A DNA stretch of 64,000 nt from Curvularia clavata (lineage: Eukaryota), in contig CP089274.1 of assembly GCA_023920165.1 (NCBI GenBank), positions 3,906,001 to 3,970,000 on the forward strand. Reading direction: 5' to 3'. Each line of letters opens with the position of its first letter. The first letter of the stretch is position 1. The notes below the pieces were generated by a model that worked only from the letters and a program-made list of their open reading frames with translations, had not been told where the DNA came from and did not search any database. Made by a program: the position numbers and the translations under genes. This document shows, in pieces, positions 1,093 to 64,000 of this stretch.

Positions 1093-1550
1093 GAGACCAT
1101 TGGGCGACACGTCAGAAGGTAATGATCCCCGCGGAAGGGCGATCACATGACTGGCCTCAGGCCAAGACCGGGAAACCACGCTAGTATGTGAGGACACGCT
1201 CACACGTGACCAAAGTGACTTCAGGGACTTCAGAGAACACAGGGGTTATTCCGTGAGGACAGTGAGGACAGGACCGGAAGCAATGGGTATAAGAATGTGT
1301 TGGATTTCATTATTACACTCGTTGTGGTCAACTCAGCAAAGTATCTTTCATAGTTACCTTTCATACTCAGATTGATACTAGTTATTCTATCTTCCAATAG
1401 GATTGGTTTTGTCTATCTTCCGTTAATCCCTACCACCGAATCGCCAGACAACTACCTCACGGTATACTTCATAGAAACTGGCCTCGCCCTAACCCGGAAT
1501 CTAGGCTAGGTAAGTATATTCCCAACTAACCAGTAGGACCCCGTGTAACA
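1044..1550 (+). repeat. 3' LTR of family A (507 bp)
   Basis: TG...CA ends with TGTTACA/TGTAACA inverted termini, preceded by PPT; ends match LTR at 39076-39587. Confidence 0.93.
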
Positions 1551-9200: not shown

Positions 9201-10070
9201 AAACTTTCTAGATTTATTAATCTACTATTACTTACAACACTTAAATATTTTCCTTTATTTACGAAGATAATTCTTTTTTATATAAGTAGCTACTAGCGAT
9301 TATAATACTATAGCCTTAGCTACGTCTATCTCAGACTCTTATTATTCTAAGCGCGCGAGCTCTTAGTCCAACTTTTCAAAGTTCGGAACCAGAACCTCTA
9401 CTAGAACGCACACCTTCACACCATTATAATAGCAATTCCTACACTCCTTCTTTAACGACGATATCCAACACTCCAGATTCTTCTTCGCACAGTATTAATA
9501 AGAAACTATCGCGAGATCGTCTATTCAATTAATTCAATCCCCAAGTATATAATAATAAGCAGTACTTCTAGAAACTATTATTAGTTTATAAGAATATAAA
9601 GCCTAGAAAAAAAAAATAGTATTATAAACCTAATAGAGAGAAATAGCACAAAATATAAGAAAAAAAAAAATAAAGCCTATATCAGGACCTCTTTAAAAGA
9701 AAACTATATTACCAGCCAATAATACATAAATAATCACACGTCCCATATACTTAGCGGAACACTACTATAGGATATATCACGTATATCCCACAGAATCCTA
9801 TACAATTCTATAATATCCCACATATAAAACAACGCGAAACATCATAGAATAGTATAGAATATAGAACACTCACTTAGTATATAGCAGTAGATATCAAACT
9901 CTTATAGCTTAATATATTCAACTTAAGTTACAAGTACAATATCTATAATATAATAGTTACTATAGAACCCCATTTATAACACACTATTGCTTTATCCACG
10001 AAAACCAACCTAAGAAGATCTTAACACCAGAAGTCTTATATTACTTCCACTCGAGATCATACTCTTAACA
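6202..10070 (+). mobile_element. Heavily RIPed family B chromovirus, RT to 3' LTR
   Basis: Colinear with 42605-46476, differing mostly by C>T/G>A changes; includes decayed antisense gene at about 9010-9578. Confidence 0.95.
9620..10070 (+). repeat. 3' LTR of family B (RIPed)
   Basis: Matches 39687-40139, 46024-46476 and 51060-51505; ends GATCATACTCTTAACA. Confidence 0.93.
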
Positions 10071-10650
10071 CCTAGCTCTGGCTGTCGCAAACCCCAAGGA
10101 ATACCCTTAAAATAGGGTCGCAATCGACGCTAGTAAAGCAGAGGATTTAGAGGCACCTAGACAGCTCACTAACGTCTATAGTAGAGGCTTTTAAAAAGGT
10201 CTTAAAGGGGGCAGCTATAATCGCGCATAAGCTAGTATTAGTATAAAAATGGATTAGTGAGCTTAAAGCAGCTAATACAGCTACTACGCGACGAAAATCG
10301 CATAAAAGAAAGCGGGTTCAGGCAGAGGGGACCTTAACAGTTGAAGATAGGGCGCGCTTAACTGCTCTCTAGGACTTTGGGGTGCGTAGTGATAGGAAGA
10401 AGTTAAAAAAGCAGAAGCGCGCTAAAGTGGGTGAACCGTCTCAACAGCGGTGTGGACGGTGCAATAGGACTAGACATAACGCGTAAACGTGTAAGAATAA
10501 AGCAGAAGTAGGCTCTAAATAGTATTTTATATTTTTTTACATTAAACTAGCCAAGGTTGGGCTATATTAGGCCATAATGTGGTGGTTTTAGTGGGGTCTT
10601 GGCAAAAGTGGACCGCGAACCCGTGTGGACCGCGAACCCGTGAGGTACGT
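10071..10650 (+). mobile_element. Fot1/pogo-type DNA transposon, 3' end
   Basis: Transposase C-terminus WLSQTPRN...RHLDSS...RCGRCNRTRHNA zinc knuckle; TIR with tandem GTGGACCGCGAACCCGT repeats ending GGTACGT followed by TA. Confidence 0.88.
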
Positions 10651-12745: not shown

Positions 12746-12883
12746 CAGAGTTGCTAACAATCAAGTTGATCGGCAGATTGATTCGCGAACGTGCCAGAGG
12801 CAGGGACGTGTATAGTGTCATGGAGCGTGATGAGGCACGTTCGCGAATCAATCTGCCGATCAACTTGATTGTTAGCAACTCTG
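12746..12883. mobile_element. 138-bp MITE, Mutator-like
   Basis: ~50-bp perfect TIRs CAGAGTTGCTAACAATCAAGTTGATCGG...; 9-bp TSD ATTCCTAGA/ATTCCTAGG. Confidence 0.9.
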
Positions 12884-15618: not shown

Positions 15619-15756
15619 CAGACTTGGGAACAATCAATTTGATCGGCCGCTTGATTCGCGAACATACCAGCTGTGGGTACGTGCACGGTTTCACGGAGCA
15701 CATTTTGGCACGTTCACGAATCAAACGGCCGATCAAATTGATTGTTCCCAAGTCTG
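15619..15756. mobile_element. 138-bp MITE related to 12746-12883
   Basis: Imperfect ~50-bp TIRs CAGACTTGGGAACAATCAATTTGATCGGCCG...; same length and TIR core. Confidence 0.88.
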
Positions 15757-23108: not shown

Positions 23109-23765
23109 ATAAGTGGGAAGGAATCAGTCGAACTTGGGGTGTTTCTAAGAGGGATAATAATCTAATCTCTAAGAAGATAATATAGGAAAGAATTGAGTGC
23201 AGGGTAATTCTATAAATCGGATAATGTAAGAAGCCTAATAGTAGGGAAAAAGATCATACAGGATGAGTACCTAAGTGGAGTAGTATTGGCACCGTACTTA
23301 TACCTTCCCCTCGGTGGGCTGCTTGAAATCATACTCCTGCCAATGCACATCATGCCGCGCGGCTAAGGATACTCATACTTTCGTCTTTGGAGCTGATCCA
23401 GTTGACGTAGACTGTGGCGTCAATCGGCCATTGAAAAGGAAGCCCACGAAGTCCGCCCACTTTGCCGAAAGATCAGGGCTAGAGCGGTACCTGGAGCGGG
23501 TGGCCTAGATCCTGTATGGTAGCCGTCAAGTGCTAATGGTTGGGCTGCAAACGGAAGGCTTCATGGCCATTGTCAAGTCTGTCTTTGAGAGTCACGCCAG
23601 CCTTTTCAAATGCAGTGTAGCCTTAGCGAAGCTCTCACAGCATCAAAATTGTCATCTTGAGCAGACTGCACATTGTGGATACAGCAGGGAACTCTTATCC
23701 GAAATCATAATGATTGGTTACGGGCATCTGCTCCGCAACCAACGTCCGTCTGTGCAGCAAAAAAC

Positions 23766-24620
23766 CTAGGGCTGAGTGCTTAGGGCTACAGTTCCTAGCT
23801 ACAGTGCGAGGTGTGGCACGCAGACATGTCAGCACGGTACTGCATGCCAAGTACTACAAACAGACGCACGTCTAGTGGGGAGCGTTTTGAAGACTTTGTC
23901 GTCCACGCGGAGAAACTGCCGGGTTCTATACTTATGTAAGCAGTTGAAGTTGTGGGAAGTATTGTGTCGCACGCGTGGGGTGCGGAGAAAATTGATGTGT
24001 ATTATGTCTGCTATCTACCATCTTTATTTATTTGTGGTGTATAGCTGTTGCTTTTTCTTGTTGAGGTGGTGCATCCTTGTTGCCGTTACAGTGGCTTGTT
24101 GCTTCGGCTCAGCTGAAGTCGTTGCTTCTGTAGCCTTGTATAGCCTGCGACATATTGTGTGTTGTTGTGTGTATCATGATAGGAGCAAGTTTGAATACAG
24201 TGTCTGTAAGCAGTTGAGGGAATGGAAAGTATTGTGTATTGTGTAGTAAATGATGCTAAGAGCAAGCTTATAATTTATTACTCTAAATCGACTTTTTAAG
24301 ACTGTGATTAATCTTGACATTTGCTATTCTGGCTTTGTTTCTAGCCTACCGAGCTATTCACAGAAGTATATTATCGCGGAGGAGCAAGGGGGTGTTAGAG
24401 GAGAGTTAGTCGATTGCATTAATAGAACGAGCGATAGCATGGTCAACAACATGCTGTTTAGCATCGGAGGCTGATATGCTAGAAGAGTAGTAGCTATAGA
24501 ATTGACACACGCTGAGCTTAACACTATATAACAGCGCTGGCCTGACGCCGAAGGTCCAGATCAAAGAATGTCTCGTTATACTGGGTGTCTCGTTACCTAA
24601 GGACGCATCTTAGTTAAGGA
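23766..24620 (+). repeat. Dispersed repeat homologous (inverted) to 62860-63367, with an LTR-like insert at about 23935-24245
   Basis: Shared blocks CCTAGGGCTGAGT..CAGTTCCTAGCTA..GTGTGGCACG, CCTGACGCCGAAGGTCC, TGTCTCGTTATACTRGGTGTCTCGTTAC. Confidence 0.8.
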
Positions 24621-24789
24621 GGCCGGTATTGAATAAAGCTTACAGTCCAATTCATGGAATGAGTTCACGCTAAAACTCTGATAGCAAGGCACAAGTATAA
24701 CCTAATATCTTCATTACTGTCCGGTCGATCCTGAAAAACCATACATGAATTAAGCCTGGGACTGAAACTCTATCCCTTAAGCAACTAGA

Positions 24790-25428: not shown

Positions 25429-25879
25429 CACCTAGATTATTGTCTTGTATCATGAAGATTACCCAAGACTTGAAATGGCAGTTGGATATTTCGCAGATGG
25501 CGTGATTTGTTGCGTCAAAATCTCGCTGATGTGGGTAGCCGTGTTGTGTGCTTCCTCAACAACCGGTTAGCTACATTATTGTTGTGTTTGCTAATAATGC
25601 GTCGCCACTCTTCCTGCACCTCTCTATAACAGCTCTCGTTTTCGTGTCTAGACATATGTATGAGCTGTAGTTTCAAGAGGACCTGTTTACTACAGCGATA
25701 TACTTGCTCATATCTTGGTACTTATATCGGCTTGCTGGAACACAACAGCTTTAGACCTGACATCTTCGCTTCCAGAGGTTAAAAACGGATCGTCACAGCC
25801 ATTTGTTCTACTGCGCGATGCTGAGGTATGATTAATGTCATCTTAGATGTCTTTTGAGGGAATAACTCGAAACAGCCTA

Positions 25880-27815
25880 CTCGTCCCACTGCATGGGACT
25901 AGGCCCAATGCAGCAGTACTAAGTATCCCACTTAGTCCTATACAGCTCAACGCAAATCCCTAGCTCAACGTAAAAATTATAAAATAATAGCACCTAGAAT
26001 TAATTTATTTAGCAATCTTGTAAGATATAGTATCTATGACTTAAAACTCTCGTAGGTGTAGTTATAGAATATTGTCTGTGAGGGCTGAGAGGGCCCCACG
26101 CGCGACAACTAAGACTTAGTTCGATCTATAGTATTCTTCCTAGCTGATCGCTAAGCTGCTTTGAACGCCCTCAACGCCTTAGCTTTCGCCCTTTGGTCTA
26201 CTTTTGATCGCGCCTCTCGCGCAGTCAAGATCCCTCCCTTCTATACTTACCTTGTTGATGGAGTTTGACAAGCTACACGCGCGCGCGCAGCTGCTATTAT
26301 TATTAATAGTTCTTGCTCTGCTAGGGCCTGCGCGTGCCTACTAATAACAGAAGCCTTTGTAAGCTTTAAAACACGCTTAATTATAATTATACTATCCTTA
26401 TACTATTCTCTCGTCTTAATTGTAAACTCGACAAATGTTCTAGATATTATTGGCGTAGGTGTTGAGACAAGCGAGCTTTGTGGAGATATTTTATCTCGAG
26501 GAGGGTGATAGACCTTGTACAGCACTCTCTCTAGATCTTAGAGCCAGATTCCTGCCAGCTCCTAGACTATATGGATTGTCGATTATTTAAAGGCTTATTA
26601 TCGTACGCGATATAGCCCGTTTAAGAATTCAACTTTATTATAGTCAACACAGCCTTCCCGCATCGCTATTTCGACAGCATTTCGATAGAGCTTTTTGTAT
26701 GATTAAAATACAGCGACGTCGAGAGGCTATAGATTGTAAGAAGTATGAGGCGGTAGCGTGAAACACACAATACTCTGCGCGTCGCAGTAATCAAGGAATT
26801 CCTTTATGCAGTGTGAACCAAATCTATCAAATATTAACAACCTCCACAAGTCTATTTGGCGACGCCTACTCCAGCTATCGAAGTGCTCTAGCCAGCCTAG
26901 TGAGAGCTCGTCGTTATTATATCCAGTTTTACTAACTGTTATAGCGTAGGAAGCAGGTAGTAAGGTATTTTTATACCACTTTTCTAGGTGCGCGCTTCTC
27001 TTGAGGACTAGGAAAGATGGTAGGACTACTCCATCGCCGGAAATTGTCTCAATTGCTATATAGAAGTCTCGATTTGTATCGCTACCTAATTATATAGCGT
27101 CAATACCTGTCGTAATAACCCACTGGCTGCCACCGACGCCTAAACGGAAGCCTGTTTCGTCCATATTATAGGTGTCGCCTTGCTAGATCGCGTAGTCGTC
27201 AATAACGCGTTTAAGACGCTTGAAATGAGCTTCGTAGTTGCCTACTGTATTAGCAGCCACACGATTAAGCTCCTGCTTCTTCTGCTTCTTTCTTCGATAG
27301 TCAGGGTTGTCCCTTAGCCATCGCGAAATCCAGTTACGGCCTAGGCGTGGGGCCTTCCCTAACAGATCTTCCATATCTAAGATACGCTGCGCAGCGCCAA
27401 TAACTTGAGGAACAAGAGCAGGCATCTCTAAACGATCGCAGCGTCGTATATAAGTCTTCAGAGCTTCGTCCTATACTAGATTAAGTCTTCAATTTACCCT
27501 AGGGCGGTCCATCTTACTCTGTCGCCTGTAGGAACGCGCGTATAGTCGATTGTACGGGACATTATATTAACGCGCTGCCTCAGCCACTAATGCGATCTCT
27601 CTATTGCCGAGGGCGTCAAGAGTATCTTTAATGCGATCTTCAATATTAAGCACATTACCGTATTGAAAGGCTATTATGTTGACGTGATTCAGCGTTTTTA
27701 GAAGGTAGGCAGGTGATGGTTTTGCGTTGAGCTAGGGATTTGCGTTAAGCTGTACAGGACTAAGTGGGACACTTAGTACTGCTGCATTGGGCCTAGTCCC
27801 ATGCAGTGGGACGAG
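25880..27815 (-). mobile_element. Full-length Tc1/mariner (pogo/Fot1-like) DNA transposon, RIPed
   Basis: ~95-bp TIRs CTCGTCCCACTGCATGGGAC..., TA on both sides; YNMDETGFRLG and LPPHTS..L*PLDVAVF motifs on minus strand. Confidence 0.95.
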
Positions 27816-28779
27816 TAAATGGCCTAATAGCCCAATGCGTCCTTGAGCTCTCGCATGAAACTGGACAGCGCTACACTACGTATATCGAAGCGCCGGAGCA
27901 AGAAAGCCCCGAAGTCATGGTTACAGTGGTCGAGAACGAGAGCAAAAGCTGATTCCACATGGCAATCACGGGTACCAATACCGACATCGAGAACGCAAAG
28001 GCGGTCTGCTCCCAAGCCGTCTTGTGCAGGAGTGTGGGGGATGATCCCGAACTATATCACGCTATTTACGACCACCTTACCCAGATGGTTTTCTTCTGTC
28101 TGTGTAGCCCCTCAGGGGAAGACCTTGAAGATATGTCCTGTTACTCAATGCACAGAGAAGCAAGTAAGATAGCACAGTGGTTGGAAACGTACATTGTCTC
28201 AAACGCAGAAGTCTTACGTGGGTGAGATCGGGATCATCAAGGCTGTAACTAGCATAATCGACCACGCATCAGTGTTGCATGATCAGCATTGTCGCGCTCT
28301 CGGTGGAGCAGACTACATCTTAGAAACCGATTTCCTAGAACAACCAATAGCTATTATTTTGCTCACATTCAGACCGTTTTCGATATAAATCTTTTTCTAG
28401 CCGTCGGGCATTGGCGCACGATCATGTACCCGTGATATTGTAGCGCTTAGCTTTGTCTGCTCTGTGCGGCTGATGAGGGATCGCCGCACTCTCCATGGCG
28501 AGGGGCAGCGCGCTATCAAGACAACAGGCTGGCGGTCAGTGGTAGCGTCTGTCCAGCGGTGACAGCTTGGCTACTACAGCAAGTTTTCTAATTAATAGCA
28601 ACGGTTGGGACGTAATTCCGGCGCATGCTGCGGGCAATCGCCCGCACGCCCGTGTCTGCTCTGATGGTCGCTGCACTCATTCACTACGAGCAGTTATGCT
28701 GAATGGAAACGTCCAGCTCATCAACAATATATTTCAATCTAATCGAAGCGATCTTGACCAATTATATAACCAATCGAGC

Positions 28780-38690: not shown

Positions 38691-38889
38691 ACTTCAAAGT
38701 AGGTTGTGAAGGGCTATATAGGGTGTGGAAGCTCGCTGTTTAAGATTGCAGCTCTTGTTGTTAGGAATATTTTGAGGATCATAACAACCGGGAAAATCTC
38801 GGGCATTGGAGGTTGGTGCGGGGGCGGTGTAACGGGGCATATCGGCGTCACGGGAAGCTTGGCTCTCGTCAGCCCCACGAACACTCAAT

Positions 38890-39075
38890 TAGACTGGTAA
38901 ATCGGGTATTTAGCTAGGGCTATCGATTATCTTGGCCAATACTAGTCCAAATCAAGTAATTCTGACGTCATTAGAGAGCTAGCACTCTAGTCTAAATATT
39001 ACTAATATATTATTTTAGCTTAATACTAATAGTACTAGTGCTAGAGCTAAAAAAGGAGTAAAAATAGGGGTATAC
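38890..39075 (-). mobile_element. Half MITE (inverted copy of 51832-52016), cut by LTR insertion
   Basis: Near-identical reverse complement of the right half of 51626-52016. Confidence 0.9.
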
Positions 39076-39686
39076 TGTTACACGGGGCCCTACTAGTTAG
39101 TTAGGAATATACTTACCTAGCCTAGATTCTAGGTTAGGGCGAGGCCAGTTTCTACGAAGTATACCATAAGGTAGTTGTCTGGCGATTTAGTAGTAGGGAA
39201 TAATAAAAGATAGACAAAACTAATTCTATTAGAAGATAGAATAACTAAGTATTAATCTATATATAAAACAATTTACGAAAGAATACTTAATAAGTTAACT
39301 ATAATAAGTGTAATAATGAAATCTAATCTATTCTTATACCTATTACCTTTAGATCCTGTCCTCTCTAATATCCCTAGTATCTATTAATTATTAGGAGGTT
39401 TAGAAGGACCTTAACTTCCTTAGCCCTACTAGTATCCTTTCTTTAGCGGGAGGCTAGCACTTAGCGGGAGGCTGGTCACGTGATCGCCTGCGCCCCGCGC
39501 CGGATTACTTCCTTCTAACGTGGACGTGGTTAGCTCTTAACCTCGTTAACCCCGTCAAGGAGAGAATCCTTCTTGTTACTTGTAACATTATCTCTCCTTT
39601 TAGGCGTATCGTCCCGATACTCTAGATTATCGTTTCGCTATGCCGCGTTGCGTAGTTCCGGCTGTATATAAGGTCTAGCTATACCT

Positions 39687-42600
39687 TGTTACGAACCTGA
39701 CAGAGGGGAACAGCGCAAGATATGGAAAGAAAGAAGGATGAAGCCTATGTCGGGACCTCTTTGAAAGAGAACCATATTACCAGCCAATAACGCATAAGTA
39801 ATCATACGTCCCACATGCTTGGCGGAACGCCACCATAGGACATGTCACGTGTGTCCCACAGAATCCTATACAATCCCACAGTATCCCACGCATAGGATAA
39901 CGCGAAACACCATAGGATAGAATAGGATATAGGACACTCACTTAGTATATAGCAGTAGGCATCGAACCCTTATAGCTCAATATATTCAACTTAAGTTACG
40001 AGTATAGTACCTACAATACAATAGTTACTACAGAACCTTTATTCATAACACACTATTACTTCATCCGCAAAAACCAACCCAAGAAGATCTTGACACCAGA
40101 AGTCTTATATTACTTCCACTCAAGATCATACTCTTAATACTTTAAACACCCTCACGATGAGCGACATTACTATAAACACTCCCGACGCTTCCTAAACCAG
40201 AGGATCCACCACTCGTAGATACAAGCCCAACTTATACTATAGAGAACGTAAGAAGCTTAAAGCTTAGCTTCTCTAGGTCGACTAATACTTCTATCTTAAA
40301 AGAGACAAGATCGATGACACCAACAAGGTCATCATAGCCACCTCATACCTTCGCGGCGATACTAAGAAGTAGGCCAACCCTATCATTGAACGCTACATGG
40401 ATGACGCCATCCAGGATGCCAACAATACAGCCCTAGTCAAGGACTAGGACGCCTTCAAAACCAAAATGCGACAGAACTTCTCACCATTCAAAGAATCAGT
40501 CATTGCGGAACAAAAGATCCAGGAACTTCGCCAGACACAGTCTGCTACTAACTACACTACACTATTTCAGCAGTATGCTACGGTCGTAGAATAGGACAAC
40601 AATACCCTTATGCGTATATACAAGCAAGGTCTCAAACCCACTATACGCAGGGAACTCATGCGAAGCAGAGCCAGTATCAATACACTAGAGGAACTCATCG
40701 AAGAATCCATTCAACTAGACAACGAACTCTACGAACTCTCATTAGAAGAACGACTATTTAGCAAGGGAACGCGCAACCAGAGATACACAAACGAACGACC
40801 TAAGAAGCACAGCTATCAACATGCTCACCCAAACAAAGGTCGACAGCGAAACTACGCGCCCAGGACCCTAGGAGCCTATCATAGATACAGTGCGGAACCA
40901 ATGCACCTCAACAACATCAACAAAGGCAACGGGCCCAGCAAATTCAACAAGGAACCATCTAAGGGCAAGAAGAAGTTTAACTACTACGCCTATGGCAAAG
41001 AAGATCACATAGCACGAGACTATCGAAGTAAAGACACTAATAAGGTCAAACGACAACTCAACGTATTATATAGGAAATTAGAATTAGACGACGACGAGAG
41101 ATAGAACGTTATCACCCCAGCCAAGATCCAATATCACCCGGACGACGAGAGACTCATCAGCGGACTAAAGAATGTCACGCTCACCACGTCTAAGGACACT
41201 ACCAAAGCTAAACTAAACAGCGACGAAGGGTACGAAACACCCAGCGAGAAAAAAGAAACTCCTATGTATAAGACCAAATATAAGAAGATAGCCAAATTTA
41301 AAAAGAAACACTAACCGGCTACCCCGCGCCACGATAGCGCCTCACCAGAAATCCTATATATAAGGGATGATCCAAAATATATAGAACTATAGACTAATAT
41401 ACTACAACAACTCTTAAGTCAACCCTTTTACAGGTATAATTACAACGAGCCCAATATACTTCTTCATATGTATAAAGATATATAGAATCTTAGATTAGAC
41501 ATCGACTTCTTTTCCATTATGACCAATTAGAAGCTACCAGACTACACGCATATTACAGCCAATATCCAACAACTATAAGAAAACACGGAGTTCCCTGAAG
41601 ACAAGGAGAACTCCACAACGACACCTCAATGGGCCAAGAAGGCACAAGCTGACTGGACACGCGACAATTAGTACTAACTAAGTCCTTATTAATATCACGC
41701 AAACAACTATAAGCACGCGTGGATCCACTGGACAGGTTACACCCATAACTTCTGCCTAACACATTGGCAAGCTAAGCAAAGATCCGACTAGAACCCAACC
41801 AGTGTTCCCAGATACCCCAAATGCAGCTAGATATAGTTAGAGTATACCAATATAGAATGCGCGAGGCACCTATAGGATAAGCGCACCACGATACACTTCC
41901 CCGGAAGAGATAGCCCGAGAGAAGTAGTGGACATGCAAACCACTCGTGTCACTCAAAGCAAGAGCAACGTATAACAAGCATGCAACCAACCCTTATGGCA
42001 CACTTGTCTCTCAGATAAATGCGAGAAACACGAAGCAGAAAAACTCTACAACGGATTTATGAAGGAACTACAGACTTTTTTAGGCCAGCGCTACGAAGGC
42101 AGGGCCCCTCCAGGGAAATCAACTCAGTAAACTCCCTAAGATTAATTAAGCTCACAGTGAAGCTTAATGGAATACGGATGCAGGCATTAGTAGACTTAGG
42201 ATTATAGGCAAATTACGTTTCAGCGCACGCAGTGCAACAAGCCGGACTTAAAGTACAGCAGAAACAAGAGCCATACCCACTATATGTCGCCAGCGGCGAA
42301 CCAATGCCCAAAGGAAACAGAATCACAGACGAGGTCAGACAAGTAACACTCAGCATCCAAAAGCATAAGGAGGAAATAGACCTAGACGTCCTTGGACTAG
42401 CTATCCACAATATCATTTTAGGACTCCTATAGCTACGAGAACATAACCCGCGGATCGACTGGAAGTCGAAAGTGTTCAAATTCGAGTGCTGCAGACTAGA
42501 CGCAACCGCAAGCCAGCCTACGCATCAGCAGAGTTCGATAGTAGATGAGAGTAATATTGCCAAACAGTACAATAACACAGAGAAACGAGCGTACTCGAAA

Positions 42601-45600
42601 AGTAGTTCCTAGAGCAGGAAGCCAAACTCAGCAGATACCAAAACCAGGCCAGCGGACCACAAAGCTAGAAGAAAGGAGAAGGGCGCAACTCCGGAAATCC
42701 CTAAACAATACAGAGAATTCGAGCATCTATTTCAGGAAGTGGTAGACGAATAAGTGTTACCAAAGTATTAACCCTAGGACCATAAAATAGTCCTATAGGA
42801 AGGAAAACAACCGACTTTCAGCCTAATTTACCAACTATCAGAATAAGAACTTGCAGTACTACGAGAGTATATAGATAAGTCACTAGCGAAAGGCTACATA
42901 CGACTGTCGAAATCCCCAGCAGGATACCCTATTATATTCGTACCAAAGAAGGATGGAACAGATTGACTATGCGTCGACTATAGACAACTCAACAACATCA
43001 CGGTTAAGAATCAATACCCACTACCGAACATCAGAGAACTTAGGAATCGACTATCTCGAGTAGAAATCTTTATAGCATTAGATCTATAAGACGGATACCA
43101 CCTTATCAGAATTAAGAAAAGTGAAGAATAGAAAACGGCTTTCCGAACACGATATAGACACTACGAATATATAGTCATGCCATTTGGGCTAACGAACGCC
43201 CCAGCTATATTTCAAAAACTCATCAACAACGTACTTAGACCCTATCTAGATATATTCGTCATCACCTATCTAGATGACATCCTAATCTACTCTAAGGACG
43301 AAAAACAATATACTAAGCACGTTAGAAAGATGTTAAAAGCCCTAGACGAGTACAGTCTTCGACTCAAGCTAAAGAAGTGTAAATTTCACAAGACCAAGGT
43401 CAACTTCTTAGGCTACGTAGTAGGGACCAACGGAGTACAAATAAGCGAAGAAAAAATTGAAATTATTAAGAATTGGCCAACACTAAAGTCAGTCACGGAC
43501 ATTTAGTCATTTTTAGGATTTGCGAATTTCAACTAAAAATTTATCAAAGATTACTCGAAAATCGCAACACCAATAACACAGCTCACAAGAAAAGATACCC
43601 CATAGAATTAGAATAAAAAGGCAGATAACGCCTTTAAGACAATTAAGAAAGCATACACCACACTACTATACTTTAGGATATTCATTCTAGAAGTACCACT
43701 GAAATTTAAAACCGACGCATCAGACCTAGCCCTAGGAGGATGCGCCAGCATCTATATCGATAGCAAATGGCACCCGATAGCATACTACTCAAAGAAGCTC
43801 TCAGGACCAGAAGAACGATACGACGTACACGACAAAGAACTACTAGCTATAGTAGCCTGCATACAACACTAGAGAGTCTACGCACATAGCTGCTCAGAAC
43901 TCACTATATACACGGATCACAAGAATTTGACCCACTTCACCACCACCAAGGTTCTCAACCGTCGACAGACCTAGTAGGCTAAATTACTCGGGCAATATAA
44001 GTTCAAAATCGTATATACACTAGGAAAAGACAATAGTAGAGCAGACGCTCTTAGCAGAAGACCAGACATCACAGGAACCAAAACTATTGTAGACCGACCG
44101 ATACTCCAGATAAACAAAGATAGAATATTAAGTCCAGCATACGAGCTCAACCTGCTTATAACAATCAGGAACGATATATCCGAAGACCAGCAGAAAGTAA
44201 TTATTTAGCAATATCACGACGACCCTGTACACGGACATCCTGGGATCGCCAGGATAATAGAACTAATTCGAAGAAACTTCGAATTTAGCAAAATGAAAGA
44301 AAAGGTCGTAGCCTTCATCGCTAAATGCGAATACTGTTAGAAGAACAAGCACAGCACACACGCACCATACGGAGAAATGCAAGCACTAGAACTGCCAAGC
44401 ACCCCTTAGATAGACATCTCCATGGACTTCGTCACAGGATTACCACCATCAACAGACCCCGTCACTAGTGCAATCTATAACGCAATACTAGTTATTATTG
44501 ACAGATTTATAAAATACGCAGAATTCAGGAAATTTAGGAAAGACTACAACGTAGTTAAACTAGCGCATATTTTTCTAGACATTATTATTAGACAATATAG
44601 AATACCAAAATCAATTATCAGCGACAGAGACAAGCTCTTCATATCTAACTTCTGGACCACACTCCAAGCAGAAATGGGTACCAAGCGAAAGCTGTCCACA
44701 GCATACCACCCCAAAACTAATAGATAAACGGAAAGAACAAACTGTACGATAAAAACATACCTATGAATATACGCTAACCATTAGCAAAATAATTAGATAT
44801 AATTACTACCCATGGTATAATTAGCATACAACAACAAATTATCAGAATTAATAAAATAAACACCATTTTATACAAATCACGGAAGACACCCGAATCTCTT
44901 TACTAGAACGTTACCAAGTTTGAAAATAGAAGTAGCTATCGCTACGGCTAAAGAAATAAAGAAAATACATAAAGAACTACAAGAATTACTTAAGAAGGCT
45001 TAACGCTAAAGCATCTTATATATCAATTAGAAAAGAAAAATAGCACCTTAGCTAAAGAAGGGGGATAAAGTATATTTAATTACGAAGAACCTTCGCACGA
45101 CACGACTAAGCAAGGGATTAGATAATATTTATATCAGGCCATTTTTAATTAAAGCCTAGAACAGACTAGTTATCTACACACTCGATCTACTACCAGACGC
45201 AAAGATACACCCAAAATTTCACGTTAAGTTACTAAAACCCGCAGACCCTAAAACGCCATTATAAAAAATATTTCATTTCGAACTAGAGGAAGAAAACGAA
45301 TTCGAAGTCGAGAAAATCCTAGCGCACCAAACCACGCGCAGAGGAACCGAATACCTAGTCAAGTAGTTAGAATACGATCACAGCAAAAACACATAGAAGT
45401 AGGAAACAAACCTCACGAACTGCCTACGGAAATTAGACTAATATCACTATACAAAGCCTCCTCGTACCTAGAGTCGCCCTCTAAAAGAGAAGGTATAAAC
45501 GCACTCCAGTCTAAGGCCAATGTACTAAATATTAAGCCACCCTCTAACTGCTCCACCTCCCAGTTAATACTCTTAACAGCCTCTAAAGCCTCGATTTCCT

Positions 45601-46476
45601 CTATAAACTTTCCAGATTTATTAATCCACTATTACTCACAACGCTTAAGCATTTTCCTTTGTTTACAAAGACGATCCTTTTTCGCATAAGCAGCCACCAG
45701 CGATTACAATACTGCAGCCTCAGCCGCGTCTACCTCGGACTCTTATTGTTCCAAGCGCGCGAGCTCTTGGTCCAACTTTTCAAAGTTTAGAACCAGAACC
45801 TCCACCAGAACACACACCTTCACACCATTGCGATAGCAATTCCCACACTCCTTCTTCAACAACGACATTCGACACTCCAAATTCTTCTTCGCGCAGTATT
45901 AACAAGAAACTATCGCAAGATCGCCTATTCGATTAATTCGATCCCTAAGTGCGTAACGATGAGCGGTACTTCTAGAAACCATTATTAGTTTATAAGAATA
46001 TAAAGCCTAGAAGGGGAGGATAGTGTTACGAACCTAATAGAGGGGAACAGCGCAAGATATAGAAAGAAAGAAGGATAAAGCCCATGTCGGGACCTCTTTG
46101 AAAGAGAACCATGTTACCAGCCAATAACGCATAAGTAATCATACGTCCCACATGCTTGGCGGAACGCCACCATAGGACATGTCACGTGTGTCCCACAGAA
46201 TCCCATACAATCCCACAGTGTCCCACGCATGGGACAACGCGAAACACCATAGGATAGAATAGGACATAAGACACTCACTTAGTATATAGCAGTAGGCATC
46301 AAACCCTTATAGCTCGATATGTTCAACTTAAGTTACGAATACAGTACCTACAATATAATAGTTACTACCGAACCTTTGTTCATAACACACTATTGCTTCA
46401 TCCGCGAAAACCAACCCAAGAAGATCTTGACACCAGAAGTCTTATATTACTTCCACTCGAGATCATACTCTTAACA
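39687..46476 (+). mobile_element. Full-length family B chromovirus, RIPed
   Basis: 453-bp LTRs 39687-40139 and 46024-46476, TSD TACCT both sides, PPT AAGGGGAGGA; gag from 40157, PR, RT (MPFGLTNAPA, YLDDIL), RNaseH, IN, chromodomain. Confidence 0.97.
45413..45982 (-). pseudogene. Family B antisense Zn2Cys6/coiled-coil gene (RIPed)
   Basis: MVSRSTAHRYALRDRINRIG...SC*YCAKKNLECRMSLLKKECGNCYRNGVKVC...FEKLDQELARLEQ = CX2CX6CX8CX2CX7C plus coiled coil and acidic tail. Confidence 0.8.
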
Positions 46477-46521
46477 TACCTATGGTGTTGTAGCCGCTTC
46501 TTCCTCCATATCTTTCTAACT

Positions 46522-47190
46522 ATATCTAAGGTTCCGACTCCCCGCGTCCGTACTTAAACTTCGACTAAATAGCGCCAATTCCGTGCGGATCGCGTTTGTC
46601 GTTAAAGGAACGAGATAACGTTCTGTTGTAAGCGTTGTAAGTAGAAGAATCTTTGTTGTTTCGTAGATACTGTGTCTGGGTAGTATGCTAGTTGTATTGC
46701 TATAAAGGCTGAGTGTAGTTTATTTATAACTAAAGAAGAGTGGGAGAAGATAGAGGCTGAGAAGCATTAAAAGCGTATTAACATTACTCGCCTACAGTCC
46801 CAGCGCGCACAACTAGATGCGTAGTTGTCGCAGTAAGAGTTGGAACTTCTAGAGATTAAGGCGTAAGAGCGAGCATTCGCCGATTAAGATCATGCCATCT
46901 TGAGTCTTTAGGATCGGGCGAAAGAGAAGGCTAAGGAGAGCTCCGCTTCTAGTATAGATTTTCTAATAACTGAACTATCGCTACCTAGACCTTTAACTAA
47001 CCTAGGCTAGTTATAGGCTAATTACTTTTCTTCTTATAATCTTTTCTTGTCTCTTAATTATTTCCTTTCCCACAAGAATTCGATTCTCGCTTCTTTAGGT
47101 GTTTCCAATGGTACTTACGTACTAGTAACTTACAGTTTGTTAGGTTTCCTTCTAGTTTCTAAGTATTATAGCTATCTAGCTAGCCTTCCC
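46522..47190 (+). pseudogene. Family A-like antisense Zn2Cys6 gene (RIPed homologue of 236-904)
   Basis: SKVPTPRVR...FRADRV...CKRCK*KNLCCFVDTVSG*YASCIAIKAECSLFITKEEWEKIEAEK. Confidence 0.85.
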
Positions 47191-50100
47191 ACTTAACTAA
47201 GTACTTCCACTAACTGCTAAATTTCTGTAGGTTCTTAATTTCTTCGACCGTATATTTGTCGTCCTCGAGCTCGACGTCGTCTATTAGCTTAGCTTCTAGA
47301 GGTGCAGGTTCTAGCAGTTTTTTATAAAAAATGTTGTATATGCGCATACTTAGTAGTAGCCGTAGTTTATAGTTTACGGGTCCTATTTTCTCTAGAATTT
47401 CGAATAGTTCTAATCGGAGATTGTCTAGTTTCTTGCTTAGCCGTTTAGTTTTTAAATTTTGTCGTAACAAAAAAACTCTATCCTCTTTCTCAAAAGTTAG
47501 TCTTTTAATTCTTAGCTTATTCGCGGCTTTAGACGTCGTGAGATTCCTATAAGTAATATTTCTATTTAATTCTTTATACAGTTCGCGTATTAGTTAGGCC
47601 TTATCGTCTACTCCGACTGCAATACTTTTAATATCTTTTAGATCTTGATGAGCAACTAGCTTATATCTGTAGTTCGCGTAGTATAGCGAGTACTTTGTTG
47701 TCGCCGATCTTAAACTATTGTAGGCCAATTATACTATTAGCAAGAGTTTAATCTAATTATCTTATAGCTTATTAGCGTAAAATCGTAAATACTATTCTAG
47801 CATTTAATTTATTTATTCCGTTTGTCCATCAGTTTCTAGATAGAAGCTAGTCGATAGCTTCTTCTTAACTCCCAGTTTTACTAAGAACGTTGACTAGTAT
47901 TTTAATGTAAATAGCTTGTCTCTATCTATTATAAATTCTTTAGGCATTCTATGCTCTAATATTAGTACCTTAGAAACTTTATATGCGCATTCTTCTACCG
48001 TAATTATTTCTTCTATAGACACGAACTTTACTACTTTAGTCAATCGGTCTACGATTACTAGTACTATGTTGCAGAATCGAGCTGATTCTGGCTCTAACGA
48101 TTTTAGAAGCTTCACTATAAAGTCTATCATTATGCTGCTCTATAATCGTATTGGTGGTGGTAAGGGTTATAATAGGCCATAGGGCTTATATCTCTTAGGC
48201 TTGTTTCGATAACATACTATATAGTTGCCTACAATTTCCTATACCTGCGCTCTCAAGTGCGGTATATAAAACGCCTTATTTAATCGCCTGACTATTTTAT
48301 TGATGCTTGTATGTCCGTATTCCCGTGACTTATATAGCTCCTTAATAAGATTTTTTCTTATGTGCGTGGGTATATAGGGTCGATTCTCGTTTCGCGGCTT
48401 ACCTTTATTTTGTAGCCTGTTAAGTTCCTTTTACCCGTCTAATAGTACCTATTCGTTCGCTTTTTATTGCTATTGCTGTTGCAACGTTTCCACTTGCTCG
48501 GCTATCTTAGCTAATCTAGCTAGATCCAGCTGGTTATACCTCAAACTGCTGTTAGATATTCTCTTAAGTACTATATTATGCGGCTCTTTATAGCCTTTTT
48601 CTCGCAGATTAGATCTTCAGCTTAGGGCGTCTGTAGCTCTATTAAGCGATCCTACTTAATACGTAATTTTAAAGTTAAACTAAGCTAATATCTTAGTATA
48701 TCAGACTTATTTTTAGTTAAGTTTCTTTATTATTATAAAACTCGTTAGATTCTAATAATTAGAAAATATCTTAATTATATATAGGAGTCCTAGTAGGTAC
48801 ACTTCCTATTATTTAAAGGTATCGACTACTCTAAGTAGTTTCTTATCGTGAATATCGTAGTTCAACTCTGCTTCGTTAAACTTTCTAGAATAGTAGAATA
48901 CTAGTCTCTATTTCCTATCTAGACACTACTATAATAATATAGCTCCAAGTGCGTAATTAGACGCGTCAGTCTTGAGTCTAGTTGGTCGTTAAGGATTATA
49001 CATCTCTAGTATAGGTGCCTCTAGAAACGTTTATTTAAGCTTATTAAAAGCTTCCTATTATTCCTATTTCTATTTAAAATCTACTTCCTTCTTTATAATC
49101 TCTATAAGAGGTGCTATAATTTTTAAATAATCTTTTATAAATTTCTAGTAATAGTTTATAAGTTCTAGAAAGGACTAAACTTTCTTAACTATTTTAGGTA
49201 TTTTCTAATTCTATATAGTCTATACCTTCTTTAGATTTATTTTCACTCTTTTAGTTAAGATAATAAATCTAAAAAATTCTATTTCCTATATATAGAATTC
49301 GTATTTTCTTAGCTATAGATATAGCTTATATTCTTTAAGCTTTCTAAGTATTTTCTTAATATATTTAATATGTTCTTTAAGCATTCCTTTACAGTATACT
49401 AGTACATCGTCTAAGTAAGCTATCGCAAAGACACCAAGGTATTTATAGAGAGCGTTGTTGATAACTAATTGAAAGATTGCTGGCGCATTTGTTAGGCTAA
49501 ATAGTATAACTGTATACTCAAACAGTCTATATTTCGTTTTAAATACTGTTTTCTATTCATCTCTTTTCTTAATCCTAATCTAATAGAATCTTTCTTAGAT
49601 ATTAAACTTCGTAAACTACTTAGCTCTCTAGAGTCGATCTATAAGCTCTGTTATAAGTGGTAGTAGATACTAATTCTTTTAGATTACTGCGTTCAATCTT
49701 CAGTAGTTGATATATAGTTGCCACTTTCTATTAGATTTCTTTACGAATAGTATAGATAAGGCTATTAGGTCTAATTCTGGTCTAATGAATTCTTTCTTAA
49801 GATTTTTTTAGAGGTATTTCTTGAGCTCGGCATCGTATTTAGATGATATTAGATACATGCTTTTTAGCGTTAACTTTACTCTATTATTAAGGATAATCTT
49901 GTAATTCTAATTCTAATATTCTGCTAAGTCTATTATCTCGTTTTCTTCGAATAGTTTCTTAAACTTATTTATTCTATATTCTTTAGGAATGTCTAATAAT
50001 ACGTCTTTAGACTTTTTCTAGAGTAAGGGTCTATTCTTCTTAGATACGACTTGTTTTAACTAAATAACTTCTACTTGCTAAGAGTCCTTTGTATAGATTC

Positions 50101-51059
50101 TCGCAATCTTATATAGTGAGATTTTGCCGAATCTCCTATTCCAGATTGTACACTAATTTGTTGGGCGTATCTCGTGTCGTACTCTAGCAACCTTTTTCGC
50201 AAGTTCTTAGCCGAGTATTGTCTTCTTTCGCCAGTTGATGGCGGGGTTATAGGCATCTAGCTAGTTATAACTAATTAATATATCGGCATCTCTTAGATCT
50301 ATAATGCTAATATTTATATAGCTTTCTAAATCTACTATTTTCAATAGTACTGATTCAGTTTCGAGCCTAATCATGCCGTTTCTATATGCTACGGGGGTTT
50401 CCTCAGCTAATACTACTCGTATCGGAACCTTCCTATTTCGATATAGTATATTGTATTTTTCTACTACTTAGGGCGAAATTATTATTCGTCCTGCGCTACT
50501 ATCTATAAGCGCGGTTATCTTATAACTTTATACAGACACGGTTATTATAAATTCGTTATAACTATTAGTGTTCTATATCTTTCTAAGGGTCGTTTTAAGA
50601 CTATCTTTACTAGCGTGACCTTATCTCTAGTGGCATTCTAGTTTTTTATCGGTCCTCTGGACCCGAGCTTCTTTCCTTTTCTCTTCCGTAGAAAGTAGCT
50701 TTAGTTCTATTTTGCATCTAGATAAATCTTGCAACTATTATCTATGCAAAAGGTCTAGTATTCATTTAGGTGTGGAATCATTTCTTCTAGCGTCTCTAGT
50801 AGATTAATTTCCTTCGTCCCGTGTATCCTGCACTTGATCGTCCGGCATTCCTTAGCTGTAATCGTGCCGTGTAGATAGTGATCCGTATGTTTTACTGCGA
50901 TTCGCTATTCTTGGTGGAATTGGCATTTCTCTATATAGTTGATCCAGCAAAGCTGCTCGTAAGCTTGCTTATGTTCTTTCTTGTAGATATAGCAATCCAG
51001 CATTGGGCAGTTAATTGCCTATAGATACTTATAGTTAGAGTTATTTTCGTCTAACTTAC

Positions 51060-51505
51060 TATTACGAACCTAACAGAGGGGAACAGCGCAAGATATAGAA
51101 AGAAAGAAGAATGAAGTCTATGTCGGAACCTCTTTGAAAGAGAACCATATTACCAGCCAATAACGTATAAGTAATTATGCATCCTATAGGCTTGGCAGAA
51201 CGCTACTATAGAATATATTACGTGCGTCCCACAGATCCCACACAATCCTACAATATCCCACGCATAGGACGTATAGGACACTATAGGATATTATAGAATA
51301 TAGGATACTCCTTTAGTATATAGCAATAGACATCAAACCTTTATAGCTCAATATATTTAACTTAAGTTACGAGTATAAGTATAATATATAAGTTATTTGC
51401 AGAACCGTTTATAACACACTATTGCTTTATCCGCGAAAACTAACCTAAGAAGATCTTGACACCAGAAGTCTTATATTACTTCCACTCGAGATCATACTCT
51501 TAACA
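51060..51505 (+). repeat. Solo family B LTR without matching TSD
   Basis: Matches other B LTRs; flanks CTTAC / TGTAT differ. Confidence 0.92.
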
Positions 51506-51625
51506 TGTATCTATCAACTCTCTCCCCTAGCATATACTACTCACTTAAGTCTTTGATCAAGCTACCTCTGAGTCTACTACTAGTAGAACAAGTAGCTACC
51601 CCACACTTTGACATATAGTATATTA

Positions 51626-52016
51626 TAGACTGGTAAACGGGTATTGACCCACTTTTCTTCTTTCATCAATATCTCATCAAAGACTAGTCCAAATCGAGTA
51701 ATTCTGACGTCATTTTAATGCCCTAAGCTAGCGCATTCTATCATGTAGTATAAAGCTAAGCCGTATCTAGCTTAGTTTAAAAGTTATTTAATAGCCCGTT
51801 TGTGAGCCCTAGGGCTGGGTTATGAGTCGGGTATACCCCTATTTTTACTCCTTTTTTAGCTCTAGCACTAGTACTATTAGTGGTAAGCTAAAATAATATA
51901 TTAGTAATATTTAGACTAGAGTGCTAGCTCTCTAATGACGTCAGAATTACTTGATTTGGACTAGTATTGGCCAAGATAATCGATAGCCCTAGCTAAATAC
52001 CCGATTTACCAGTCTA
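51626..52016. mobile_element. ~390-bp MITE with TAGACTGGTAAA termini (hAT-like ends)
   Basis: TIR TAGACTGGTAAA(T)CGGGTATT and subterminal inverted ACTAGTCCAAATCRAGTAATTCTGACGTCATT; no TSD found. Confidence 0.8.
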
Positions 52017-52451
52017 ATCGCGGCTTATGAACTATATTAGTTTTTCTAGTCGTAGAGCTCCCACGTTTAGTTCTAGTTATATCCCCACCGCACGGTATAG
52101 TTTATATAGATCCTCTGTCAGTGCTGTCGTATCACCTTAGTCGAACTGACGCTTGATTTCCTGGAGACGTTTCAGTTCTTGCTCGTCAAGCGCTTATTGC
52201 CTCCAAGCGCGCAGTTCGTCTAGCTGTTGAGCAATGGTGGTCTGAGGTAGTTCAAGTCGAGCTGGGCTGCCCTGAATTAGGCTTCTTTATGCTAGTTCGG
52301 CCTAATCTGCCTCCATAACGGCAGGCTTGGATAGTTTACTTGAAGATGGCTAGGTTGAGTCTCTAGTTAGAGTAGGCTATAAGTCCCCTACTACCGTGTT
52401 TCAAGTTGACCTTAGGCGGCTCCGAGTTTGGCGACTACCTGGGTTCGGCAT
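52017..52451 (-). pseudogene. Degenerate gag-like N-terminal fragment
   Basis: MPNPGSRQTRSR...QQLDELRAWRQ*ALDEQELKRLQEIKRQF coiled coil; weak resemblance only. Confidence 0.35.
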
Positions 52452-62507: not shown

Positions 62508-62859
62508 TATTGATAAGCTCCTTTTAGAGGTGGCTCGAGTCAGCTGGGCAGAGCTCGTATAATCGTGCAATAGGAGAAGATACCGGGGTGCCGGTGGAAG
62601 CTAGTACGTGAGACGGGGCTATGACGATGGTATTATGCAGTTCATGATTGTAGACAGCAGACTGGAGGATGCAGCGCTCACAGCTTCTTATGACGAGTTC
62701 TTGCGAAAGGATGACGTAGATCTGGTGGAGAAAGTGGCAAAGCTTGATCCACACAGATAAACGTCCAACCAATAATCCCGCAAAGTCTGCCGCACTCGGT
62801 TTGTATGTTGTCGCGAGCCAAACGCTGGGGGACTTCAAACCTACTTAGCACTGCTCCGA

Positions 62860-63367
62860 ATCTAAAGTGCGTCTCTAAGTAACGAGACACCTAGTATAAC
62901 GAGACACTTTCCTTCCGGACCTTCGGCGTCAGGTCAGCATTGTTGCGTAGAGTCAAGCTTAACACGTATCGATTCTGTAGCTGCTGCACTCCCAGCATAT
63001 CGGCCTCCAATGCTGGAAAGCGTGTTATTAATCGTGTTGTCGCTCGCTCTGTTAAGGCCGTCTCCTAACTTTCTTCTAACGCCTCCTGTTTTTTCCGCGG
63101 TAGTATAGATCTACAAAAAGCTTAGTGAGCTAGAAGGGAAGCAAAAGTAGCGAAAACTAAGATCGCAGCCTTATATGTAATGTTAGTTTAGGGTAGTTGA
63201 CATAAGTATATCCTAGCGGTTCCTCCGCGTCGACGGCAATTTCGTCAAAACGCTAGTAGACGTGCGCTTTTTATATCACTTGGCATATTACAGTAGCGTG
63301 CTAAGATGTCTACGTGCCACACTGCGCACTATAGCTAGGAACTGCAGCTCAAGGTACTCAGCCCTAG
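62860..63367 (-). repeat. Second copy of the dispersed repeat at 23766-24620
   Basis: GTAACGAGACACCTAGTATAACGAGACAC and GGACCTTCGGCGTCAGG are reverse complements of 24541-24597. Confidence 0.8.
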
Positions 63368-64000
63368 GCAGCTCTTAGCTTAGACTTATACTACCTTCAC
63401 TATAAAGCAATGATCTTTTCATTAAATATCTACGGAATAGTGCGCAAAGTATGCGTAGTTAGACAGTATCTTTACGTCTGCACGACTTACATCGTTGCGC
63501 ATCCTTCGTCGTTAACATGAGTCTCGCGAGACGCTACGATGGCAACCTAGTTAGGACTACTCTACCCACTAGTATCTGCTTACGTGCGCATTAACCTAAT
63601 ATACGTTCATATAGCGAACACTGTCTACCGCAAGTTATGAGGCTGGGCGGCGCAGGATGCTCGATATACCTAGCATCCGCTCAGCCTAGTCGCATGCACT
63701 GCTTCGACAGGCAGCCTTTACAGCAGCCTAGTGTAACGTCTGTCCTTGCGTCGCGGGACACCTTATGGCTGGAAGAGGGAAATTAGCTAGGCGAGGTTGA
63801 GAGAGTTGTGGCACCTCCCTGAGCGTGGGGATAGTGAAGATATGAGTGTCAGACGGGGAGTGCTAACGGATGGACGGGTGGAGTTTGGAGAGACAGAGAG
63901 AGGGGAGGGGGGGGGGGGGGGGGGGGCGAGAGAAGACAACAGGTAACTCTTCACATCCAAGCCTTGGTGAGATCACAGTTAGTCTCTAGATATGAATTAC

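Follow-up and report, generated by a model that had tools for sequence, protein, structure and literature searches.

We analyzed a window of 64,000 nucleotides (nt) from Curvularia clavata (assembly GCA_023920165.1, contig CP089274.1, positions 3,906,001 to 3,970,000 of the forward strand), in which two families of chromoviruses, called here A and B, hold a frame antisense to pol beside the long terminal repeat (LTR) at the 3′ end. The stretch of interest, at 45413-45982, is the antisense frame of the second copy of family B; it is a dead copy of a genuine protein-coding accessory gene, killed by repeat-induced point mutation (RIP). All positions are those of the window, and L001, L002, and L003 designate intact relatives on metagenome contigs. 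The features of family B are as follows.

39687-40139, plus strand: 5′ LTR of copy 2, TG..CA type, with the target duplication TACCT at 39682-39686
40223-41260, plus strand: decayed gag of copy 2, found by tblastn to the gag of L001 and by Pfam (Retrotrans_gag, E 1.9e-9)
41995-45471, plus strand: decayed pol of copy 2, with reverse transcriptase, RNase H, integrase, SH3, and chromodomain (tblastn and Pfam)
about 45301-45447, plus strand: chromodomain of copy 2, where the tail of pol overlaps the 3′ end of the antisense gene
45413-45982, minus strand: antisense accessory gene of copy 2, RIP pseudogene; the one-frame translation has 189 codons and five internal stops
45812-45904, minus strand: zinc-cluster-like Cys6 motif CX2CX6CX8CX2CX7C, found by pattern scan; it reads C*YCAKKNLECRMSLLKKECGNCYRNGVKVC, with one stop within
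46009-46023, plus strand: polypurine tract adjoining the 3′ LTR, a block kept in L001-L003
46024-46476, plus strand: 3′ LTR of copy 2, with TACCT at 46477-46481; putative site of an antisense promoter, by geometry only
9010-9578, minus strand: antisense gene of copy 1 (element 6201-10072), more decayed, with 13 stops, an ATA in place of the ATG, and Tyr for the first Cys

The antisense frame of family B

Copy 2 is a plus-strand chromovirus of 6.8 kb with LTRs that are 94.9% alike, inserted between the two halves of a 5-bp target duplication. With stops read as X, the Pfam domains Retrotrans_gag, RVT_1, RT_RNaseH, Integrase_H2C2, SH3_Tf2-1, and Chromo all score above their cut-offs (for Chromo, 34.9 bits vs. 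25.1). The set of features by which we recognize a chromovirus (LTRs, target duplication, gag, pol, and chromodomain) is present in copy 2. The Pfam domains exceed their cut-offs likewise in L001, L003, and family A. Between the two B copies there are 649 transitions and eight transversions, and at 305 sites copy 1 has T where copy 2 has C, with 199 of the 305 preceding an A. RIP prefers CpA, and the excess of transitions together with the T before A thus constitutes a RIP pattern.

In the frame at 45413-45982, the internal stops are four TAA and one TAG, and the terminal codon is TGA. In the alignment, every one of these internal stops faces Q, E, or D in intact relatives, one of which (P0124) is 65% identical to the frame (tblastn). 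The terminal stop lies opposite L-T in the chromodomain motif NLTNC, so that the antisense 3′ end and the pol frame overlap by ∼59 nt, with the remainder of the ORF (open reading frame) past the pol stop. At the other end, the ATG is 41 nt from the 3′ LTR and the polypurine tract lies inside that gap. In the alignment of family B, the final ∼45 residues form an acidic tail, rich in D and E and with neither K nor R. When all six frames of the window were scanned for CX2CX6CX5-12CX2CX6-8C, two matches emerged, 45812-45904 (minus strand) in B and 707-796 (minus strand) in A. In 200 block shuffles, the mean was 0.005 matches, with at least one match in 1/200 and at least two in 0/200.

The first-pass annotation had described in B an antisense gene with six cysteines, a coiled coil, and an acidic tail, at the same position and orientation as in A, with a 3′ end overlapping the chromodomain, and a further decayed copy at about 9010-9578. 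The motif, the tail, and the overlap are all present as just described, the long helix is predicted by AlphaFold (see below), and the copy on the minus strand at 9010-9578 is real, having lost its start and first Cys.

Two observations concern the segment upstream of the ATG. A TATA-like run in the window copy was rejected as a candidate signal, as the intact relatives reveal it to be a RIP product of CTTCATGTCCTCATGAAC. The gap that separates the antisense ATG from the polypurine tract holds the sequence CTTCATGTCCTCATGAACTGAC (45983-46008, minus strand), which is kept in L001-L003 (in L001 at ∼5350-5378). This sequence contains two antisense upstream ORFs of two to three codons each; alternatively, it may serve plus-strand priming of the sense element.

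Intact relatives and selection

The window copy, again with stops as X, retrieves 50 proteins at E ≤ 1e-3, many of them with 184-191 amino acids (aa) and with ends that match the start and end of the window frame. A scan of metagenome contigs, confirmed by tblastn irrespective of the state of the ORF, gave four loci, three intact (187-194 aa) and one decayed; in a scan of viral contigs, 598 stretches matched the pattern and no relative was among them. These natural relatives (the 50 matches and 3/4 metagenome loci) were used in place of the de-RIPed consensus proposed in the first-pass annotation as a check on the six cysteines. All six are kept in the intact relatives of 184-194 aa.

In L001-L003, pol is on the opposite strand and stops 80-182 nt inside the 3′ end of the ORF, so most of the ORF lies past pol (∼485 nt of the 564-570 nt in family B). 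Outside the overlap, 132 codons can be compared; here the antisense frame is free of stops in L001-L003, and the other five frames contain 1-13 stops per pair. Between L001 and L002, the nonsynonymous rate (dN) is 0.068 and the synonymous rate (dS) 0.509, a dN/dS of 0.13; in the other five frames dN/dS is 1.1-4.0, except in the frame sharing third positions (0.19-0.30). The pattern of substitutions is that of a gene under purifying selection.

A chance or shadow ORF, held open by constraint on the sense strand, would find some backing in family A, where the sense frame is open to 1092 over the whole antisense ORF and the last ∼20 codons of the unspliced ORF mirror the chromodomain. In family B, however, pol stops 59-182 nt into the 3′ end of the ORF and the sense frames beyond carry stops; moreover, the motif is far above its chance level in the shuffles and there are intact homologs at 40%-70% identity. 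The stop-free antisense frame and the dN/dS of 0.13 therefore rule out a shadow ORF as far as three sequences can, and overall we hold this explanation to be extremely improbable. The claim of the first-pass annotation, a selected accessory gene and not a chance shadow ORF, agrees with these results, and that the gene is real and selected is to us close to certain.

Homology between families A and B

Family A and a decayed relative, A′, contribute the following features.

236-904, minus strand: antisense ORF of family A, intact, 222 aa; the Cys6 motif at 707-796 reads CKRCEEKNLRCFVDTASGRCAGCISVSAEC
996-1552, plus strand: 3′ LTR of family A, 92 nt from the antisense ATG
46534-47196, plus strand: antisense gene of A′, RIP pseudogene, 54% identical to A, with 13 internal stops
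about 46485-50605, minus strand: RIP-decayed A′ element, a relative of A by tblastn and blastn

The window starts inside the unmutated family A element (GC content 0.51-0.54), in a pol tail with SH3 and chromo domains. As had been noted at first reading, the LTRs of A and B differ and the families have little nucleotide similarity: blastn gives only two short matches, in pol (67%-74%), and none in the antisense-gene region or the LTRs. The antisense proteins, which that reading had asked to be aligned, do align (BLASTP E 5e-6; hhalign probability 95.7%, E 1e-8, over 128 columns). They follow one plan, with an N-terminal ST..R.A.DRI helix, the Cys cluster, E-W/F..K, a long helix, PGT, and an aromatic acidic motif. 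In 21 pairwise comparisons of copies, the antisense proteins and the pol C terminus vary in identity together, which fits inheritance of the gene with the element. The gene occupies the same place and strand in A, A′, both B copies, and L001-L003, the location expected of antisense additional ORFs. By these alignments, the A and B genes are homologous and appear to have been inherited with the element.

The sense pol frame of family A stays open on the plus strand to 1092, ∼250 codons past the chromodomain, and spans the whole antisense gene with a low-complexity tail. This tail may be coding or merely stop-free; the pol of Gypsy-2_CH, an element of Cochliobolus heterostrophus, may reflect such a tail.

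Breadth of the protein family

The A protein has 160 matches, the named ones in Bipolaris, Exserohilum, Pyrenophora, Alternaria, and Stemphylium; several are labeled “Zn(2)-C6 fungal-type domain” in UniRef. With a joint A and B profile, searched against 1.84 billion representatives of clusters at 50% identity, the number of clusters is 754 at E ≤ 1e-3, falling to 232 at E ≤ 1e-10 and to 28 at E ≤ 1e-30. The shared architecture thus extends beyond the two families from which it was first proposed, and the gene belongs to a large family of proteins of 150-230 aa. The full Cys spacing is present in 100 of the 144 newly listed representatives. In an alignment of 40 divergent members, the plan is the same and the six cysteines are invariant at a mean column identity of 24%; in the family alignments generally, they are invariant or at least 90% conserved.

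The named relatives of the divergent members occur in Cercospora, Hortaea, Elsinoe, and Aureobasidium, and also in Stromatinia (Leotiomycetes), Lasallia (Lecanoromycetes), and Watsoniomyces (Lichinomycetes). Named members thus span four classes of Pezizomycotina (Dothideomycetes, Leotiomycetes, Lecanoromycetes, and Lichinomycetes), and the atlas search returned clusters of Ascomycota only. Some members (P0157, P0158, P0165, P0350, P0367, P0374, P0418, and P0419) have the names “RnfC subunit,” “CheZ,” or “galactokinase,” apparently automatic misnomers.

The contigs of 30 of the 120 listed relatives measure 6.0-7.9 kb, which is what a single element would occupy once its LTRs are collapsed, as in L001. 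Of 88 full-length divergent members, 15 end in GSS, GNS, CSS, or CSP, which are antisense readings of the chromodomain motif (NLTNC) at which the B gene stops. Contig sizes and C-terminal endings hint that the divergent members, too, may be borne by elements.

A fragment of a host zinc-cluster gene, captured once or more and riding along without benefit, might be suspected from the resemblance of the domain to a host family and from the transduction of host sequences by retroelements, mentioned in the accessible text of PMC11963269. Yet A, A′, B, and L001-L003 agree in place, orientation, and overlap with the chromodomain, the divergence tracks that of pol, and selection appears purifying. In addition, the best 150 of the 754 profile matches are all short (51-309 aa), none with the usual length of a host factor. 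We regard such a capture as very improbable.

Predicted fold

For the A protein (77 aligned sequences), AlphaFold gives a predicted local distance difference test (pLDDT) of 92-98 at residues 21-140. In the model, residues 14-29 form a helix, each of the two CX2C carries a short one (38-42 and 57-62), and a long helix spans 72-140; confidence is low in the C-terminal third. P0124, the relative from family B, shows this arrangement too, with lower confidence for its Cys region and a helix at 68-147 (pLDDT above 90). A homodimer prediction for residues 20-165 of P0124 reached 0.31 vs. a mark of 0.32, with controls at 0.00.

The Cys spacing of both window genes falls within the CX2CX6CX5-12CX2CX6-8C of Zn2Cys6 clusters. 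In Foldseek searches against the PDB, Zn2Cys6 DNA-binding domains, judged by title, make up 17 of the 21 rows listed for B and 15 of the 20 for A (Put3, Hap1, Pho7, Gal4, Leu3, Ppr1, and AlcR, with Put3, Hap1, Pho7, and Gal4 in the top ranks). Zn_clus (PF00172) is the commonest Pfam match, found at E ≤ 1 in 17/21 B members and 26/40 divergent members. In a sequence search of the PDB, the A profile gave only coiled-coil noise.

Transcription and splicing

We aligned contigs from four public runs, for which an RNA origin is conjectural, to positions 1-1600 of the window. Two joints occur in them, 199->296 (96 nt skipped) and 405->471 (65 nt). Within the allowed shift, the ends of the skipped segments are CT..AC on the plus strand, that is GT..AG on the minus strand, the sole canonical reading. 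The two putative introns are then:

407-471, minus strand: intron a of the family A antisense gene, 65 nt, GT..AG; joint 405->471 in runs X1 and X2
202-297, minus strand: intron b of the family A antisense gene, 96 nt, GT..AG; joint 199->296 in X1; opposite the chromodomain core

The joint of intron a is carried by X1 and X2, from different organisms and different studies; unspliced contigs spanning 407-471 were found as well. The joint of intron b has 112 letters on its shorter side in X1, and short loose ends in X13 and X2 agree with it. Intron a starts with GTACGG, has CTGAC ∼20 nt before its end, and ends with ACAG, all of which match fungal splice signals. Coverage shares of the runs are all small (at most 0.27), and in X11, the sole run recorded as RNA, coverage is confined to 1282-1551, in the A LTR. 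The two minus-strand GT..AG introns indicate spliced antisense transcripts, and hence that the minus strand of family A is probably transcribed and spliced.

Removal of intron b gives a product of 204 aa ending in VTCSP, without the 20 residues that mirror the chromodomain. Removal of intron a gives a product of 145 aa that ends right after the coiled coil and lacks the C-terminal motif. In family B, an intron candidate GTTCGT..CTAG of 57-66 nt, recognized by pattern only, is present at the stop codon of L001 and L002, which corresponds to the site of intron b in A.

One could then ask whether the antisense RNA itself is what matters, through control of copy number or silencing of the sense transcript, with the ORF secondary. 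The apparent spliced minus-strand transcripts of family A speak for this, as does the precedent of yeast Ty1, an LTR retrotransposon limited by antisense RNAs. Such a role leaves unexplained a pattern at the level of codons: dN/dS of 0.13 in a single, stop-free frame and cysteines invariant at 24% identity. An RNA role in place of a protein seems to us most unlikely; roles for both could coexist.

Proposed function

Both the observation and the interpretation of the first-pass annotation hold, and more broadly than first proposed; the flagged copy is a dead pseudogene, and the interest lies in the gene family. As an explanation for the whole, we lean toward a selected antisense accessory gene whose product is probably a dimeric DNA-binding regulator.

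In this proposal, the product would be a minimal Gal4-type regulator with an N-terminal basic helix. The Zn2Cys6-like cluster would bind DNA, the coiled coil of ∼80 residues would form the dimer, and the acidic aromatic C-terminal motif (LALDWSAF in B and DLGWLQAD in A) may offer a surface for activation or partner binding. Because the ATG is only 41 nt (B) or 92 nt (A) from the LTR, the mRNA would start in or just beside the 3′ LTR, resembling that of HBZ of HTLV-1. The regulator would act in trans on the LTRs of the element or on host promoters. The 145-aa form, with the cluster and the coil and devoid of the C-terminal motif, could oppose the full form. HBZ has spliced and unspliced forms. 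Antisense introns would survive retrotransposition because the sense genomic RNA is not spliced at them.

A block of the U3 region of the B 3′ LTR (46150-46195) contains CACGTG and GGCGGAACGCC near a CCAAT; it is kept in the window copy, L001, and L002 and not in L003, and is to be taken as a candidate target only.

Several results weigh against this reading. The Foldseek E-values are weak (0.07-5), and the gathering cut-off of Zn_clus (21 bits) is reached by none of the members searched: A scores 12.9 bits (E 0.12), the best members have E-values of 0.0039 and 7.5e-4, and the window copy of B has no Zn_clus match in Pfam. With the B profile, the sequence search of the PDB reached CYP1/HAP1 at E-values that are not significant (0.43 and 4.1). 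A search for CGG/CCG pairs in the LTRs of A, B, and L001-L003 found none common to them, and no target site is in view. Both antisense copies of B in the window are dead, and nothing functional is thus encoded by them here. The dN/dS values come from three sequences, and both pairs with L003 are saturated at synonymous sites. The RNA evidence is limited to family A contigs from runs guessed to be RNA, with the strand read from splice dinucleotides on contigs that show neither strand nor ends.

The Zn2Cys6 label of the first-pass annotation is tentative. The Cys spacing and the Foldseek ranking fit it; the Pfam threshold, reached by no member, does not. Since all members miss that cut-off, the product is best described as Zn2Cys6-like, and we do not count it among the members of that family.

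A gene that is real and selected could also encode a protein with another part in the life of the element than the regulation of transcription, such as steering integration with the chromodomain, binding the RNA or cDNA of the element, or sequestering host silencing factors. Membership in Zn2Cys6 is not established, CGG pairs common to the LTRs were not found, and in every copy seen the gene is joined physically to that end of pol which encodes the chromodomain, all of which suits such a role. So does the size of the protein (150-230 aa), without the long regulatory region that usual fungal zinc-cluster factors have. However, Cys cluster, linker, coiled coil, and acidic aromatic tail follow one another as they do in the solved DNA-binding fragments of Gal4, Put3, Hap1, and Ppr1, and no other fold or family competes. 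We consider a nonregulatory role rather unlikely. Given a real gene, the balance tips slightly toward the dimeric regulator. The most specific form of that proposal, a whole clade of Pezizomycotina chromoviruses that would encode its own Gal4-type factor antisense to pol, in a gene that is spliced and under the control of the 3′ LTR, with a switch between full and truncated products through retention or removal of an intron, is tentative and, taken whole, doubtful.

Other repeats in the window

Copy 2 of family B (39687-46476) sits inside the minus-strand A′ element in a nested cluster (39076-52018). The 3′ LTR of A′ occupies 39076-39635, and from 46485 onward the body of A′ continues; the B insertion point lies between the A′ antisense ATG and the LTR. 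A third B-type LTR at 51057-51506, on the far side of A′ and in the same orientation, is 85% identical to the copy 2 LTRs; it could represent either a solo LTR or what is left of a further insertion. The cluster is flanked by an inverted repeat of 188 nt (38888-39075 and 51831-52018; 98.9% identity), the arms of which are much better preserved than the RIP-mutated elements between them.

Part of a third Ty3/gypsy pol (2238-3587, minus strand), 37% identical to the B pol, adjoins the A LTR. Outside these elements there are two inverted repeat pairs (73%-78% and 96%) and one direct pair (78%), at 23765-24621 vs. 62854-63368, 25878-25975 vs. 27720-27817, and 12746-12883 vs. 15619-15756.

Implications and comparison with known systems

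Fungal LTR retrotransposons have been described as elements that consist of gag and pol, and a conserved third gene, with introns and a product like a DNA-binding protein, would change their annotation. At present, copies of the gene go by the label of host “Zn(2)-C6 domain” or of hypothetical proteins, and some are named “galactokinase,” “RnfC,” or “CheZ”; counts of zinc-cluster factors in repeat-rich host genomes would be inflated by element copies. Should the product indeed be a Gal4-type factor of the element itself, it would constitute a retrovirus-like regulatory layer comparable to HBZ/Tax, and bursts of copies together with solo LTRs would disperse over the host genome both the factor and the sites that it binds. 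A third gene of this kind would be the equivalent in fungi of the antisense genes that deltaretroviruses and the plant Retand/Grande elements carry.

With the zinc-cluster factors Gal4, Put3, Ppr1, Hap1, Leu3, and Pho7, the element protein shares the Cys spacing, short helices at both CX2C, and a coiled coil that follows the cluster (in the element protein, these structures are predicted). It differs from them in that it is below the Pfam threshold, has eight residues between Cys3 and Cys4 without the Pro that is usual there in Zn2Cys6 clusters, is only 150-230 aa long, and is encoded within a retrotransposon.

In the accessible text of PMC4112212, Gypsy-1_CH of C. heterostrophus is 6.7 kb long with an LTR of 451 bp, and thus comparable in size to family B (6.8 kb, LTR of about 453 bp). 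In the same source, Gypsy-2 to -6_CH have 7.4-8.4 kb and a pol of 1,248-1,471 aa, like the long open pol frame of A; unlike in our elements, two ORFs are described, gag and pol. C. heterostrophus, the source of Gypsy-1_CH to Gypsy-8_CH, is among the species with named homologs of the A protein. The words “antisense” and “zinc” do not occur in the accessible text of the fungal surveys PMC3248453 and PMC4112212. In the full-text literature searched, a Cladosporium paper included, we found no antisense zinc-cluster gene in fungal retrotransposons; an earlier description is possible in subscription journals or Repbase reports.

In plants, Grande, RIRE2, and Retand have, in the interval from pol to the 3′ LTR, antisense ORFs that persist in different copies and species and encode a TRP28 domain, with a product thought to bind DNA (PMC11963269, accessible text). 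According to that text, these elements are of the Retand lineage, which is not a chromovirus lineage. TRP28 is unrelated to the fungal Cys6 domain. The region between pol and the 3′ LTR is 2.9-6.6 kb there and about 0.55 kb in the fungal elements; in the accessible text, no overlap with pol is described and the word “intron” is absent.

HBZ of HTLV-1 is unrelated in sequence, has a bZIP domain and not a Cys6 cluster, and belongs to a vertebrate retrovirus; the fungal promoter, for its part, is only putative. As far as the accessible parts of PMC3185765 and PMC3736048 go, HBZ is nonetheless like the fungal gene in being an antisense protein gene of a reverse-transcribing element, placed beside the 3′ LTR, with a transcription-factor-like product that has a coiled-coil dimerization helix, the fungal coil being predicted.

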